Shown here: in pieces, positions 28,339 through 34,714 of the stretch
How the letters are laid out: every line of letters begins with the position of its first letter
Numbering within the stretch: position 1 is the stretch's first letter
Assembly: GCF_000026545.1 (NCBI RefSeq)
Contig: NC_011601.1
Source of the DNA: Escherichia coli O127:H6 str. E2348/69
GTDB lineage: Bacteria; Pseudomonadota; Gammaproteobacteria; Enterobacterales; Enterobacteriaceae
DNA length: 64,000 nucleotides
Direction: 5' to 3' (one strand)
Made by a program: the position numbers and the translations under genes
The notes under the pieces: model-generated
The model's database searches: none
The model's input: the letters and a program-made list of their open reading frames with translations, nothing else
What the model was told of the DNA's origin: nothing

Positions 28339-28776
28339 ATGATTAAAGAACGTATTTCTTATATCATTCCGATTGCGATGGATGAAGGCAACCCAGTAAC
28401 TCCAGTTCTTATCTATGAAATGGATAAAGACTCCCATGAAGTGGATCTATCATTTGGCGCTTTTTTTATCGGCCTTAAGGCTACAAAAAAATATTCCATA
28501 GGCATTGAGGTTTTCAATGCTCAAGAAATACCGATACCAATTGACACAAAACTGTACTCCAACCATAAGTTTTTTACGGTAGCAGAAGCCAACGATGGAG
28601 AAACCATCGTATCAACTTCTATGAGAATTAACTTCCCAAGGGTGAAAATTATCAAGCCTGGGATATTCGAAGTTAGAGCATCACTGGTTAATCCTGATAA
28701 AGGCGAAGTAATTGATGTAAAAAGTTCGTTTTTTGACGTGAAGATAACAGGATCAGTTCGCGATGAGTTTAGATAA
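28339..28776 (+). CDS. Hypothetical 145-aa protein occupying the rexA position
   Basis: ORF track; starts 8 nt after cI stop; no recognisable family. Confidence 0.6.
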   Translation: MIKERISYIIPIAMDEGNPVTPVLIYEMDKDSHEVDLSFGAFFIGLKATKKYSIGIEVFNAQEIPIPIDTKLYSNHKFFTVAEANDGETIVSTSMRINFPRVKIIKPGIFEVRASLVNPDKGEVIDVKSSFFDVKITGSVRDEFR

Positions 28777-29134
28777 CAAGGTTGCTCAGCTTCGTCCAAA
28801 TCAAAACATATCTCGCCCAATTGGACACTATTCCACTGATGATGCATACTCACGGCATGGTGGAGGAAACGGCGGAGGTAACATGCTTGAGGCTAGAGTT
28901 GCAAAGCTAGAGTCTGATGTTGAATACATCAAGCGCGATCTCGCTGAAGTAAAGTCAGATATAAAATCTGTAGATTCTCGTCTGTCAGGTATTGAGACAA
29001 GCATTAGCTCAGCAAAAATCACCATCAAGGCATCTGCGGTCGTTGTCAGTTTCGTGTTCGCATTTTGCGCCTACATTTTTGGAAGTTATGTTTCCAAAAT
29101 CCTTGATGCCTTAAACGGACTCGTTCTTAAGTAA
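28763..29134 (+). CDS. Hypothetical 123-aa membrane-anchored coiled-coil protein occupying the rexB position
   Basis: Gly-rich linker GGGNGGGN, predicted coiled coil, C-terminal hydrophobic helix AVVVSFVFAFCAYIFGSYV; start overlaps upstream stop. Confidence 0.6.
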   Translation: MSLDNKVAQLRPNQNISRPIGHYSTDDAYSRHGGGNGGGNMLEARVAKLESDVEYIKRDLAEVKSDIKSVDSRLSGIETSISSAKITIKASAVVVSFVFAFCAYIFGSYVSKILDALNGLVLK

Positions 29135-29635: not shown

Positions 29636-30019
29636 ATGACACGCAGAACTCAGTTCAAAGGCAATTCACGTTCTCGTCGTCGTGAGCGTTTAAAGGCAAA
29701 GGCATTAGCTAACGGCGTACTGGCCCGCGAAGAAGCAATAAGTTCAGAAGTATTACACCGCCCTACTCTAAGCAGAGCGCAGATTCAGGCTAAAGGTACT
29801 CACGAAACGCCTGAGCGCATAGAAGACGCTAAGCCAATTAAGTTCATGGCACAGGACGTGATCTGGCAACAGAAAGAATACAGACGCAATCTGGAGCGAG
29901 CGGCCATTGTGTACGCGAATGAGTTTGGACATAAGCAACCAGAAACTGGTGTATGTCTTCCAAACGTAGCCATTTACGCGGCAGGATACCGGAAATCAAA
30001 ACAACTGACAGCAAGATGA
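29636..30019 (+). CDS. N: Antiterminator N-like protein (P22 gp24-type, Arg-rich motif)
   Basis: Arg-rich N-terminus NSRSRRRERLKAKA and C-terminus AIYAAGYRKSKQLTAR resemble P22 gene 24 product; first gene after pL. Confidence 0.6.
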   Translation: MTRRTQFKGNSRSRRRERLKAKALANGVLAREEAISSEVLHRPTLSRAQIQAKGTHETPERIEDAKPIKFMAQDVIWQQKEYRRNLERAAIVYANEFGHKQPETGVCLPNVAIYAAGYRKSKQLTAR

Positions 30020-30077: not shown

Positions 30078-30548
30078 ATGACAAAATCATGGAGCGTACC
30101 TTTTCCTGAATCAGAAACTGAACATGAGGGAATGCCTGTTTTCTGGAGATTCCAGGCGACAGTTGAAGAAGATGGAATCAAAATATTCGCACTTCAATAT
30201 ATAGCTTTTCATCAGACAGAGCATTATGCATGGTTGGTTCCTGCGCATTGGATTGTTAATTTTAAACCAGCACCAAATCAGTGGTTACAGGAATGGAAAC
30301 AAAAGAGAAATAGATATGCAATTAAGAAAGTAGCAAAAAATGCAGAAAGATCTTTTGCATTCCCAACGAAGAAACTTGCCATTGAAAGTTTATTGCGCCG
30401 AAAGAAATACCATTTAATGAGAATCAAACAAGATTTGGCTGTTGTATCAACTCTTGTTGATGGGATGAAGAATATTGATACATCAACACCAGATATTGAA
30501 TATAACTTTGGACACAACCAAGAAACAGAAAATTGGGTATTCTACTAG
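30078..30548 (+). CDS. Hypothetical 156-aa protein in the ral/sieB slot
   Basis: ORF track; AT-rich by eye; followed by hairpin terminator. Confidence 0.5.
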   Translation: MTKSWSVPFPESETEHEGMPVFWRFQATVEEDGIKIFALQYIAFHQTEHYAWLVPAHWIVNFKPAPNQWLQEWKQKRNRYAIKKVAKNAERSFAFPTKKLAIESLLRRKKYHLMRIKQDLAVVSTLVDGMKNIDTSTPDIEYNFGHNQETENWVFY

Positions 30549-30594: not shown

Positions 30595-30891
30595 ATGGGA
30601 TTTAAAGGTACTGAAGGTAAGTGGGAAATAATGATGGATGGGGATGAGATTAAAATCATCCAGGCAGACTCTCTTGAAAATGGCACAGGCTGGCGTTCGT
30701 ATATTGCAATCTGTGAGGAAGTTCAATGTATTGAAGATGCCAATCTAATAGCGGCAGCACCTGACCTTCTCGAAGCACTTCAGTTATTACTTAATCAATC
30801 CAAAAATAGAACAACGACAACATATCCAGAATGGTATGGAGCTGTTAATAAAGGTCTTGCAGCAATCAGAAAAGCTCTTGGGGATAAGTAA
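30595..30891 (+). CDS. Hypothetical 98-aa protein
   Basis: ORF track; AT-rich by eye. Confidence 0.45.
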   Translation: MGFKGTEGKWEIMMDGDEIKIIQADSLENGTGWRSYIAICEEVQCIEDANLIAAAPDLLEALQLLLNQSKNRTTTTYPEWYGAVNKGLAAIRKALGDK

Positions 30892-31079
30892 TGAAAGTAA
30901 AAATAACTGCTTCTAACACCAGTTTTATTAGTGTTGGTGATATTACAGAAGTAATAACAAACCATGATGGAACCCAAGTTATGTGGTCTGATCTTTGTAA
31001 AAGATATGAGCGAGTTAGTTGGTGTAAACTCGTATGGGGCGTCGAATACGAAGAAATACCTGAAATGCATGACGAATAA
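30891..31079 (+). CDS. Hypothetical 62-aa protein (ATGA-coupled to upstream gene)
   Basis: ORF track. Confidence 0.4.
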   Translation: MKVKITASNTSFISVGDITEVITNHDGTQVMWSDLCKRYERVSWCKLVWGVEYEEIPEMHDE

Positions 31080-31213
31080 GCACTGTGTATTCATTCCAAC
31101 GAGTGAATACACGGAGCAATGTCGCTCGTAACTAAACAGGAGCCGACTTGTTCTGATTATTGGAAATCTTCTTTGCCCTCCAATGTGAGGGCGATTTTTT
31201 TAACGGAGGATAT

Positions 31214-32182
31214 ATGAGTGAAGTAACAGATTTAGTTGTTATTGAAAAAGCAAATGCAATGACTGTATTTCAGTCTGCCGACCAGATTGAAGAAATCCTT
31301 CAAAAGGTTGAACGTGAAGTTATGTCCTTTGTGCCTGATATCACAACGGCAAAGGGCAGAAAGGAGATCGCTTCTCTGGCGTATAAAGTTGCGCAGACGA
31401 AAACATATCTCGATGGCCTTGGCAAAGACCTTGTTGCTGAACTGAAGGAAATTCCAAAGCTAATTGATGCCAACCGCAAGACAGTGCGCGATCGCCTTGA
31501 TGAGCTGAAAGCCAAGGCGCGCCAGCCTCTTACTGATTATGAGGAAGAACAGGCGCGGATTAAAGCCGAAGAAGAAGCTAAGGCAGCAGCTGAAGCTCTC
31601 GCAAAGCAAATTGAGTCTGACCATGAAATAGCGATTTTGATGGATCGCGAATTTGACCGCCAAAGAGAAGAGGCAAGACTCAAAGCGGAGCAGGAAAAGC
31701 GAGAGCATGAAGAACGCTTAAAAAGAGAAGCTGAAGAGAAAGCCAGAGCAGAAGCCGAAGCAAAGGCAAAAGCCGAAATTGAAGCAGCAGCAAGGCGAGA
31801 AGCAGAAGCTAAGGCCGCAGCGGAACGTGCAGAGCGTGAACGCATTGAAGCCGAGCAACGAGCACAGCGCGAAGCAAAAGAGGCAGCAGAACGAGCTGAA
31901 AGAGAAAAGCAGGCGGCAATTGAAGCAGAACGCCGAAAAGCACAGGAGGAGGCTGAACGAATCCGGCGCGAGGCTGAAGCAAAAGAGCAAGCCAGAATAG
32001 CAGAAGAAAAAAGAATCAAGGACGAAGAAGAGCGTAGAGCAAAGGATAAAGCTCACCGGAAAGAAGTAAATAACAAAATACTTGCTGACCTTATCAAGGT
32101 TGGTGCATCAGAAGATGTTGCTAAAAATATCATAACAGCCATCGCAAAAGGCGAAGTATTCGCAACAAAAATAACCTACTAA
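31214..32182 (+). CDS. Coiled-coil protein with long low-complexity E/K/R/A-rich region
   Basis: ORF track 31160..32182 trimmed to ATG 31214 (GGAGGA RBS). Confidence 0.5.
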   Translation: MSEVTDLVVIEKANAMTVFQSADQIEEILQKVEREVMSFVPDITTAKGRKEIASLAYKVAQTKTYLDGLGKDLVAELKEIPKLIDANRKTVRDRLDELKAKARQPLTDYEEEQARIKAEEEAKAAAEALAKQIESDHEIAILMDREFDRQREEARLKAEQEKREHEERLKREAEEKARAEAEAKAKAEIEAAARREAEAKAAAERAERERIEAEQRAQREAKEAAERAEREKQAAIEAERRKAQEEAERIRREAEAKEQARIAEEKRIKDEEERRAKDKAHRKEVNNKILADLIKVGASEDVAKNIITAIAKGEVFATKITY

Positions 32183-32205: not shown

Positions 32206-32337
32206 ATGATTTACGCAATCGCGGGAGGCGCTCGCATGGGTGCCTTCCAACTAAATGAATCTTTACTTGAACGAATCACCCGTAAATTACGTGACGGATG
32301 GAAAAGAGTTGAGGTCTTATTATGCGCAATGAAATAG
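32206..32337 (+). CDS. cIII: cIII-like protein
   Basis: Hand translation MIYAIAGGARMGAFQLNESLLERITRKLRDGWKR... shares ESLLERITRKLRDGWKR with lambda CIII. Confidence 0.6.
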   Translation: MIYAIAGGARMGAFQLNESLLERITRKLRDGWKRVEVLLCAMK

Positions 32338-32474
32338 CCATCAATCACCAGATGCTTCGTGCTGCACAGAACAAAGCAGTAATAGCCAGATTTATTGGTG
32401 ATTCAAAAATGTGGCTTGAAGCAAATAAAGCGATGAAATCAGCTATCAACCTTCCGTGGTATCGCAGGAAATGA
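32322..32474 (+). CDS. kil: Kil-like small protein
   Basis: Hand translation MRNEIAINHQMLRAAQNKAVIARFIGDSKMWLEANKAMKSAINLPWYRRK resembles lambda Kil (FIGDEKMF region). Confidence 0.45.
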   Translation: MRNEIAINHQMLRAAQNKAVIARFIGDSKMWLEANKAMKSAINLPWYRRK

Positions 32475-32728: not shown

Positions 32729-33436
32729 ATGGATTTGAACAAATTCGATGAGCCATTCAGCCCTGAAGATATAGAATGGAGAATACAGCAAAGCGGTAAA
32801 ACACGCGATGGCAAGGTGTGGGCTATGGTGCTGGCTTATGTCACGAACAGGGCAATCATGAAACGCCTTGACGATGTTTGCGGCAAAGCAGGATGGCGCA
32901 ATGAATACCGAGATATTCCCAACAACGGAGGCGTTGAATGCGGCATATCAATCAGGATTGATTCCGAATGGGTAACCAAATGGGATGCTGCTGAAAACAC
33001 GCAGGTAGAAGCCGTAAAAGGTGGTCGTTCCGGTGCAATGAAGCGCGCTGCCGTTCAGTGGGGAATCGGTCGGTATCTGTATAACCTTGAGGAAGGTTTC
33101 GCACAAACATCTCTCGATAAAAAGCAGGGATGGCACAGGGCAAAACTCAAGGATGGAACAGGATTTTACTGGCTCCCTCCATCGCTGCCGGGATGGGCAA
33201 TCCCAGCATCAGATAACAAACCATCACCAGAAAATACCAACCAGACATCTCCATCGGTTGACTGCGAACAAATCCTGAAAGACTTCAGCGATTATGCATC
33301 AACAGAAACTGACAAGAAAAAACTCATCGAGCGTTATCAGCGTGACTGGCAATTAATGGCTGGCAACGAGGAGGCACAGGCTAAATGCGTTCAGGTAATG
33401 AACATCAGAGTTAACGAACTAAAACAGGCGGCATAA
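32729..33436 (+). CDS. Single-strand annealing protein, Rad52/Sak-like
   Basis: Rad52-type core recognised; occupies bet/erf position. Confidence 0.65.
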   Translation: MDLNKFDEPFSPEDIEWRIQQSGKTRDGKVWAMVLAYVTNRAIMKRLDDVCGKAGWRNEYRDIPNNGGVECGISIRIDSEWVTKWDAAENTQVEAVKGGRSGAMKRAAVQWGIGRYLYNLEEGFAQTSLDKKQGWHRAKLKDGTGFYWLPPSLPGWAIPASDNKPSPENTNQTSPSVDCEQILKDFSDYASTETDKKKLIERYQRDWQLMAGNEEAQAKCVQVMNIRVNELKQAA

Positions 33437-33904
33437 ATGTCTCACTTGGACGGAATTATTAAAAGATTCGAGTCCAGCTACAAAGTTAATGAAACAACAG
33501 GTTGCTGGGAGTCTACCTATTCAAAAAACAAAGGAGGATACACAAAATTTGTAGCCTTTGGCGTAACAATGCTTTCTCATCGGGTTGCTTTTGAGCTTTA
33601 TCACTCCCCCATTCCATCTGGGAAGATGGTTTGCCACAAATGCGATAACCAATGCTGCGTTAATCCTGAACATCTCTTTTTAGGTAGCGCGCAAGAAAAC
33701 ATGGACGACAAGATAGCAAAAGGAAGGCATCGTGGAGCCAAGAAAGGTCATGCTCATCATGGTGCAAAATTAACAGAGTGGCAGGTTATAGAAATTAGGA
33801 AAAGACTCTCTGAAAAAGAGAGTCAGTACAAGATAGCAAAAGACATGGGTGTATCTCAATCAATTATAAGCAACATAAAAACTGGCAAGAGGTGGAGCAA
33901 ATGA
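33437..33904 (+). CDS. HNH homing endonuclease (free-standing, between annealase and ssb)
   Basis: HNH motif [26 protein letters not shown]. Confidence 0.75.
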
Positions 33905-34407
33905 GTTCTCGCGGGATAAATAAGGTGATTATCCTTGGTCGGGTAGGACAAGACCCGGAAGTTCGATACTCACCATCAGGAACAGCGTTCGCTAACCTGA
34001 CAATAGCCACGTCAGAACAATGGCGAGATAAAAATACTGGCGAGCAAAAGGAATTGACTGAATGGCATCGTGTTGCTGTATCCGGGAAACTGGCTGAGGT
34101 CGTGGGGCAGTATGTGAAAAAAGGTGATCAGATTTATTTCGAGGGAATGCTGAGAACCAGAAAGTGGAAAGACCAGTCAGGGCAAGACCGTTACACAACC
34201 GAGGTTCATGTCGGAATTAATGGCGTGATGCAAATGCTTGGCGGCATTGGCGACAGCAAACAACAAGCAGCCAGCAGGCAATCACAGAAGCCACAGCAGC
34301 AATCATCACCAGCACAACACAACGAACCTCCGATGGATTTTGACGACGATATACCCTTTGCACCAGTAACTCTCCCCTTCCCTCGTCACGCTATTCACGC
34401 AATTTAA
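33892..34407 (+). CDS. ssb: Single-stranded DNA-binding protein
   Basis: OB-fold SSB N-terminus, Gln/Pro-rich linker and acidic DDDIPF tail. Confidence 0.85.
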
Positions 34408-34420
34408 TCAGGAGAAAATC

Positions 34421-34714
34421 ATGCCAGCGCCTCTGTATGGTGCGGATGACCCGCGCCGCTGTTCCGGCAATTCCGTATCGGAGGTGCTGGATAAATTCAG
34501 AAAAAACTACGATCGAATAATGTCTCTACCGCAGGAAACGAAAGAGGAAAAGGAATTTCGCCACTGTATATGGCTTGCAGAGAAAGAAGAACGCGAGCGA
34601 ATTTACCAGACATCAATCCGACCATTCCGCAAAGCCACATATACCCACTTCCCTGAAATTGACCCGCGCCTGCGTAATTACCGCTCACGTTATGGCGCTA
34701 TCAGTAATGACTGA
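34421..34714 (+). CDS. Hypothetical protein
   Basis: ORF track. Confidence 0.4.

Follow-up and report, generated by a model that had tools for sequence, protein, structure and literature searches.

The stretch of DNA analysed here (64,000 nucleotides of the chromosome of Escherichia coli O127:H6 strain E2348/69, NC_011601.1, referred to below as the window) includes a lambdoid prophage in whose pL operon, behind a tL2-like terminator, lies an intact delayed-early gene (positions 31214–32182; Table 1) for a protein with a long stretch dominated by Glu, Ala, Arg and Lys. The terminator stands directly 5′ of the gene (the annotation of Shigella phage Sf6 has ‘terminator tL2A’ at the matching position) and expression is therefore presumably dependent on N antitermination. 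The genes that follow are cIII, kil, an open reading frame (ORF) of 57 aa and then one for a Rad52-family annealase, with the gene for the phage SSB further on. An earlier interpretation based on the letters of the DNA and a list of its ORFs (the sequence-only reading) had singled out this ORF as a low-complexity coiled-coil protein upstream of recombination genes, and its coordinates, its strongly biased composition, the ordinary sequence on either side of the biased part and the position relative to the recombination genes were all found to be correct. Our own reading is that the gene encodes a three-part protein in which a single alpha-helix (SAH) acts as a spacer between two conserved domains, and that it may be an accessory of phage recombination modules; we put the probability of this composite at about 0.45. 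The identity and architecture of the protein are near certain, and for the functional part, which is argued from gene position, we would say roughly one in three.

Table 1. Features of the charged-helix gene and of the surrounding early operon in the window (AF2, AlphaFold2; pLDDT, predicted local distance difference test; aa, amino acids)
Feature	Position	Strand	Description	Basis
N homologue	29636-30019		early-left operon	
Intrinsic terminator, tL2-like	31173-31204	+	8-bp stem with 5 GC pairs	stem GCCCTC/GAGGGC followed by T7 run
Shine-Dalgarno sequence	31205-31209	+	GGAGG, 4 nt before ATG	read from sequence
Charged-helix gene, coding sequence	31214-32182	+	322 aa, ATG start	full-length PHROG 1376 member
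Conserved N-terminal region	31214-31561	+	aa 1-116	AF2 pLDDT 85-93
Helix continuation and transition into charged segment	31562-31657	+	aa 117-148	
ER/K-type charged helix (predicted)	31658-32068	+	aa 149-285, 137 aa	composition, charge pattern, AF2 helix
Small conserved C-terminal domain	32069-32179	+	aa 286-322	AF2 pLDDT 92-98
cIII homologue	32206-32337	+		annotation of identical DNA
kil homologue	32322-32474	+		ORF list and annotation
Rad52/Rad22-family single-strand annealing protein	32729-33436	+		PF04098, E 7e-26; phrog_1097
HNH endonuclease	33437-33904	+	between annealase stop codon and SSB start	PF13392 with helix-turn-helix tail
Phage SSB	33892-34407	+		PF00436, E 1.8e-36
Abc2-like anti-RecBCD protein	34421-34714	+	end of recombination module	RefSeq annotation of matching prophage; Sf6 gene 25

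The gene is already catalogued as a hypothetical ORF and the object itself is thus already known, while literature searches returned nothing on its function. Its DNA matches a prophage gene in the E. coli E2348/69 chromosome at 100% identity. Gene 33 of Sf6, which likewise lies between tL2 and cIII, is an orthologue with 98.6% nucleotide identity, and Orf53 of Pseudomonas phage D3 is a homologue with about 54% identity in the N-terminal domain, its gene standing directly before erf and exo; no difference of substance separates the window gene from these relatives. Near-identical copies are found in CUS-3, HK544, mEp043/213/234, IME10, Sf101 and Stx1a phages. The profile of PHROG 1376, labelled ‘unknown function’, matches the whole protein (E 2.7e-110, residues 1–322 against profile positions 1–362), and the two halves of the gene also have PHROG families of their own (phrog_17211 and phrog_21365). 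In CUS-3 (L250, CP000711.1 35058–36027) one extra nucleotide near codon 113 breaks the reading frame into ORFs of 116 and 214 aa, and another locus in the viral set (L046) also carries a frameshifted copy. A further E. coli protein of 111 aa (P0018) is a chimera of the first ~80 residues of the charged-helix protein and an Abc2-like/DUF2856 C-terminus; it joins window positions ~31214–31453 to ~34620–34714 and therefore points to a deletion in the prophage by which the entire cIII–kil–annealase–SSB block was lost.

The frame 31214–32182 codes for a protein and is under purifying selection. Across 39 distinct E. coli alleles the ratio of nonsynonymous to synonymous polymorphism (pN/pS) is 0.13 for the whole gene (0.08, 0.19 and 0.27 for the N-terminal, charged and C-terminal parts respectively) and third codon positions hold 65 of the 115 segregating sites, results which dispose of the possibility, raised in the sequence-only reading, that the frame might be non-coding. 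The spurious antisense ORFs noticed in that reading are present over the biased stretch, four on the opposite strand (31537–32019, 160 aa; 31718–32056, 112 aa; 31460–31708, 82 aa; 31809–31982, 57 aa) and one further stop-free ORF in the sense +1 frame (31779–32000); the alternative frames are free of stops because of the biased codon set, in which GAA, GCA, GAG, AAA and AGA are favoured. The description of the DNA as repetitive did not hold up, as Tandem Repeats Finder reported nothing beyond a 6-bp period of low strength (score 43) and a single 15-bp unit present twice, so that the biased DNA is a compositional bias rather than a repeat array. One of a pair of alleles on viral contigs (L029/L020) has, at the equivalent of window positions ~31814–31879, an in-frame deletion of 22 aa between direct repeats AAERAERE, which suggests slippage or recombination inside the biased DNA; the other allele of the pair is 65 aa shorter and mosaic, with a different C-terminal domain.

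A profile of the first 116 residues was used for an exhaustive search of 1.84 billion representative proteins (clusters at 50% identity) and retrieved 5,651 clusters at E≤1e-3, of which 1,206 remained at E≤1e-30. In phage records the N-terminal domain occurs in phages of Pseudomonas (D3, JBD44), Vibrio, Klebsiella, Erwinia, Aeromonas, Sinorhizobium and Iodobacter and even in a Leptolyngbya phage. Among the 144 representatives first retrieved 98 are full-length and share all three parts, the charged core being flanked by the N-terminal domain and by a C-terminal domain whose last residues are I-x-Y/F; these 98 formed the architecture set, with the window protein as the reference of the alignment. 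The N-terminal region carries the motif VPDxSTxKGRKEIAS and invariant residues R49, K63, G70, R88 and P105. The transition segment that follows has conserved hydrophobic positions in or near it (I116, L129, I133, I139, L142 and M143). The C-terminal domain has a family consensus of ~40 residues (HRxxINxxAxxxLxxxGxxxxxAKxxVxxIAxGxIxxVxIxY) whose first position is H281, among the last residues of the charged segment. Scans of the window protein, 99 full-length homologues and 10 unusually long ones against Pfam, NCBIfam and PADLOC gave no meaningful family, the noise consisting of scattered coiled-coil-type matches such as Baculo_PEP_C. The low complexity of the middle part had been called extreme and unusual; it is not unusual, being kept in 98 divergent homologues, and the gene itself is carried by 529 of 5,426 complete E. 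coli genomes (~10%).

The charged part is shorter than the 200 or so residues first estimated, with a pure core of 137 aa (149–285) inside a biased zone of ~180 aa (107–285). Residues 161–295 comprise 27% E, 25% A, 17% R and 13% K with ~5% hydrophobic residues per 21-residue window, and the core itself contains 42 K+R and 42 D+E (net charge 0) and only eight hydrophobic residues (~6%). The sequence had been described as charged heptads, but the fraction of hydrophobic residues at a and d in the best heptad register is only 0.12–0.25 across 155–266, and in the family alignment conserved hydrophobic columns between 155 and 284 are almost nil (position 169 only). The charges on the other hand are highly ordered: opposite charges at i,i+4 are enriched over shuffled sequences in both directions (acid to base 24 pairs against 12.6 expected, z +4.6; base to acid 30 against 12.7, z +6.7) and like charges at this spacing are depleted (four pairs against 24.5 expected, z −5.5). 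The same signature (|z|>2) is found in 96% of the 98 homologues, with median z scores of +4.5 and −3.8, and the homologous cores have a median length of 134 aa (interquartile range 121–156; 95% are longer than ~93 aa) and a net charge per residue of about 0. What is conserved is a property of the core and not its sequence. The i,i+4 pattern is the ER/K SAH signature known from myosin and from designed SAH domains (PMC5347031, PMC5812594, PMC4183817), and such domains are typically mistaken for coiled coils by prediction programs (PMC5812594). Because there is no a/d core and because opposite charges follow an i to i+4 pattern, the ‘charged heptad coiled coil’ is unsupported, and from its composition and charge spacing the core looks like a stiff ER/K single alpha-helix rather than a coiled coil; a straight alpha-helix of 137 residues would have a length of ~20 nm.

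Compared with the SAH domains of myosin VI/X and drebrin and with designed AEEEXXX repeats (PMC5347031, PMC4183817, PMC5812594), the core shares the composition dominated by E, K and R, the near absence of a seam, the enrichment of opposite and depletion of like charges at i,i+4 and the near-zero net charge, and AF2 likewise predicts a long helix that would be a spacer, here between two conserved domains of a phage protein. It differs from classic SAH domains in being richer in Ala (25%) and in occurring in a phage protein, and the resemblance of the predicted helix to them is a structural analogy and not a family relationship. A different picture is given by the ordinary-looking N-terminal helix from residue 46 to ~125, where conserved hydrophobic positions follow a 3-4-7 spacing (52, 55, 59, 66, 69, 73, 77, 84, 91, 95, 98, 102, 106, 109, 116 and 123). 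If any part of the protein forms a bundle or a coiled coil it would be this seam-bearing helix.

AF2 models, all of the monomer, predict an all-alpha protein. Without an alignment the helices are 22–39, 46–102, 108–295 (a single helix) and 300–311, and with the alignment of 99 sequences they are 12–20, 22–38, 46–147, 166–295 and 300–311; mean pLDDT in the latter model is 85.8, reaching 92–98 in the C-terminal domain, although the predicted template modelling score (pTM) is just 0.39. Foldseek found nothing in the PDB below E = 4.7, and a search of BFVD returned family members only, one of which (116 aa and 100% identical to the N-terminal fragment of the window protein) superposes at 3.0 Å. 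A sequence-profile search of the PDB with the N-terminal domain gave no significant match. For the C-terminal domain the profile matched domain III of RuvA from three species (E 0.15–1.3) and a UBA domain (E 0.32), all non-significantly, and the pattern ‘A..aL...G(L)(T/S)EE.AK.vv.aI’ can be aligned with both folds; RuvA_C (PF07499) is touched by two of 48 members and a RuvA chain is among the Foldseek matches (probability 0.21). The same helix-Gly-helix motif also fits unrelated domains, Glycos_trans_3N being hit in five of the 48 members, and the likeness to RuvA domain III/UBA is offered as a lead only.

The gene neighbourhood was examined in 241 viral loci retrieved with three queries, counting as an annealase any Erf, Rad52-like or Redβ protein encoded within 3 kb. 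Such a gene is present in 219 of the 241 (91%), always on the same strand (219/219) and in 199 cases downstream, and for the D3-type set and the mixed set (Vibrio query) the gap between the two genes has a median of 8 bp. The D3 gene runs 67 nt into the start of erf and is followed by an exonuclease gene, a Klebsiella phage has the family gene abutting gam–bet–exo, and in a Vibrio phage erf is found ~1 kb upstream of the family gene, a single small ORF intervening. Nearby downstream ORFs were scanned in 18 of the remaining 22 loci, and most of these loci have a Sak4-like, RecT or exonuclease gene close by; the ORFs include five AAA_24 (Sak4-type) proteins, one RecT, four YqaJ exonucleases and two DUF3799 nucleases. 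Linkage to an annealase is the strongest clue to function, and stronger than the sequence-only reading could know; its suggestion of a coiled-coil recombination accessory holds as far as the gene linkage is concerned but is not supported for the coiled coil in the low-complexity part. The family does not, however, follow any one type of annealase: E. coli alleles at least 97% identical to the window protein in the N-terminal 116 aa have Rad52-like, Erf or Sak4-like neighbours, and a D3-type set (at least 84% identical to the N-terminal region of D3) adjoins Redβ in 40 loci and Erf or Rad52-like proteins in 40 loci. As near-identical alleles adjoin different annealase families, a partnership with one particular annealase is less likely, and the partner would more probably be a factor common to all of the modules, such as DNA ends or single-stranded DNA (ssDNA), SSB or a host machine.

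Taken with the architecture, this positional evidence suggests an accessory role in recombination or recombination-dependent replication. The N-terminal, seam-bearing helix would probably serve as a bundle or oligomerization stalk, the charged helix as a stiff spacer of ~20 nm and the C-terminal domain as a small binding head, so that the whole protein could act as a tether or ruler holding a target of the N-terminal region at a set distance from a target of the C-terminal domain.

Several points weigh against this. With regard to structure, the alignment-based AF2 model breaks the long helix at 146–165, with low confidence, and the protein may fold back into an antiparallel hairpin; an Ala-based coiled coil is also conceivable in 183–225, whose a/d occupancy rises to 0.75 once Ala is admitted as a core residue. 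The protein also has no recognisable catalytic or binding domain and found no structural relative in our searches. With regard to function, cIII and kil separate the gene from the annealase in the window and in its E. coli relatives, and the proximity could result simply from both genes lying in the pL operon; with the 57-aa ORF also intervening, the link in the window is a looser one. Lambda recombination and recombineering function without such a gene, and no lambda homologue was present among the retrieved matches; together with the frameshifted copy in CUS-3 this argues that the gene is not essential, and it may be dispensable, although records of this kind may also contain errors. The four classes of function set out in a 2025 survey, which covers 325 lambdoid Rec modules and treats the module as a contiguous cluster, are SSB, nuclease, annealase and anti-RecBCD; none of them resembles the family, and the survey does not mention it (PMC12315714). 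Finally, HK620-type loci carry the gene, yet Sak4 was stimulated by SSB alone and the gene goes unmentioned in the paper (PMC5928155).

It is from these functional points that the main rival draws, namely that the gene is an early-operon accessory unrelated to recombination (concerned with host takeover, acting as an anti-defence decoy or trigger, or as an effector of division or the envelope) which merely shares the operon. The intervening cIII and kil genes, the omission from the Rec-module functions and the frameshifted copies in CUS-3 and L046 are all consistent with it, and the association of the same allele with many types of recombinase is what would be expected if there were no specific partnership. 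The arrangement outside E. coli is harder to accommodate, as the 8-bp median gap in diverse sets and the 67-nt overlap in D3 suggest translational coupling rather than co-residence, the orientation is shared with the annealase without exception, and the association persists in phages whose early regions differ greatly (Pseudomonas, Vibrio, enterobacterial and metagenomic). We regard an unrelated accessory as doubtful, while recognising it as the most serious competitor of a recombination accessory.

Less likely than this is that the charged stretch is after all a canonical two- or three-stranded coiled coil and the protein a rod-shaped oligomeric scaffold. Such a structure would fit the long unbroken helix predicted by AF2, the Ala-inclusive a/d occupancy in 183–225, the position of Ile189, 211, 236 and 250 roughly on one helical face and the RefSeq name ‘coiled-coil domain-containing’, and the 3-4-7 seam in the helix 50–125 indicates that the protein may oligomerize somewhere. 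The core is nevertheless poor in hydrophobic residues both overall and at a and d, electrically neutral, and marked here and in almost all homologues by the salt-bridge pattern and the depletion of like charges, properties for which coiled-coil predictors wrongly pick out SAH domains (PMC5812594), and we consider a true coiled coil in this segment unlikely.

The slot occupied by the gene is not an empty one elsewhere. In Firmicutes phages the position upstream of erf–ssb or sak4 holds uncharacterized DUF1351 (PF07083), Gp157 (Sipho_Gp157, PF05565), DUF2483 or Mu-Gam-like genes, which are immediately upstream of and co-oriented with Erf, Sak4, RecT or Redβ genes whatever the recombinase family (PMC8093625), but these families lack a long ER/K segment and have no detectable homology to the charged-helix protein. 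Sfi21 orf157 (Gp157) and TP901-1 ORF10 were rejected as they show no similarity (hhalign probability 0.1–0.3% for orf157, and no Pfam match). It might still be supposed that the family is a very remote homologue of DUF1351 in which the middle has been replaced by the charged helix. The shared slot beside erf, sak4 or recT modules (PMC8093625; Oenococcus phi9805 gp48), the similar length (308 aa) and two short collinear local matches in hhalign (77–90 to 60–73 and 274–291 ‘AHRKEVN’ to 241–258 ‘AHQKIVN’) speak for it, whereas none of 99 family members matches PF07083 even at E≤1 and the hhalign probability is 0.2–0.35% against a single sequence and a five-sequence alignment, the template being shallow and the power of the comparison limited; we regard this derivation as very improbable. 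A possible likeness between DUF1351 and the N-terminal ‘T..AKGRKEIA’ helix scored below 1% in hhalign against phi9805 gp48 alone or with four homologues, and homology could not be demonstrated.

Many records name the protein ‘TolA’, ‘cell envelope biogenesis protein TolA’ or ‘colicin import membrane protein’, but that it is a TolA-like protein of the cell envelope is scarcely credible: domain II of TolA is indeed a long A/K/E-rich helix, and this shared segment is the source of the widespread annotation, but the TolA identity is refuted at the sequence level by the lack of a membrane anchor (maximum Kyte–Doolittle 19-residue mean 0.9) and of TolA domain III (no Pfam family at E≤0.01, and none in 99 homologues), the conserved domains at its two ends have no relation to TolA, and the setting is a cytoplasmic phage early operon, making the name a low-complexity artefact. 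Other database names for the gene are ‘hypothetical’, ‘coiled-coil domain-containing’ (RefSeq) and ‘antitoxin’, and distant phage homologues are labelled ‘tail-fiber protein’, ‘integrase’, ‘antitoxin protein’ or ‘TolA’ (e.g. EU876853.1, KT898134.1 and MT833387.1). These last labels are misannotations that have spread because of the low-complexity segment.

Some other features of the operon deserve mention. The HNH endonuclease gene that separates the annealase from SSB in the window is missing from that position in Sf6 and in all 23 other loci with a Rad52-like annealase and SSB, where the two genes are adjacent, and from this comparison it has the look of a mobile homing endonuclease that has inserted here. 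Three conserved ORFs (30078–30548, 30595–30891 and 30891–31079, all on the + strand) fill the space from N to the terminator; they belong to PHROGs 1636 and 1273 and match nothing in Pfam or NCBIfam. A further ORF (28763–29134, + strand; 123 aa) is situated between N and the repressor region. Its product has an N-terminus rich in Gly, a short coiled stretch and a C-terminal tail of hydrophobic character, and may be a small membrane protein of the immunity region; it belongs with PHROG 6136 and shows weak matches to models of the XhlA/hemolysin and CorA-like types.

A bolder form of our interpretation would make the family an unrecognized, near-universal fifth component of recombination modules, present alike beside Erf, Rad52-like, Redβ, RecT and Sak4 recombinases. 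From a base formed by a coiled coil or a bundle would extend a single-helix arm of conserved length (~20 nm) with a small RuvA-domain-III/UBA-like head at its tip, and as a ruler or tether this arm would connect either a DNA end or the annealase/SSB–ssDNA intermediate with a machine of the host, for instance the replisome or a motor of branch migration. In this complete form we think it quite improbable. What can be carried forward is the reinterpretation of the core as an SAH, the size of a family that has not been modelled, its systematic misannotation and its near-universal linkage to annealases. More than 5,000 clusters at 50% identity have neither a Pfam nor an NCBIfam model and are routinely misnamed as TolA, antitoxin, tail fibre or integrase. 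The low-complexity core of these proteins appears to be a conserved, length-constrained helix of the ER/K type, a motif that has been characterized mainly in eukaryotic motors, and the linkage to single-strand-annealing recombinases of every major family is tighter than current descriptions of Rec modules acknowledge. Should this linkage prove functional, it would indicate an accessory factor that has so far been missed, one that could matter for recombination-dependent phage replication and for the porting of recombineering systems between hosts.

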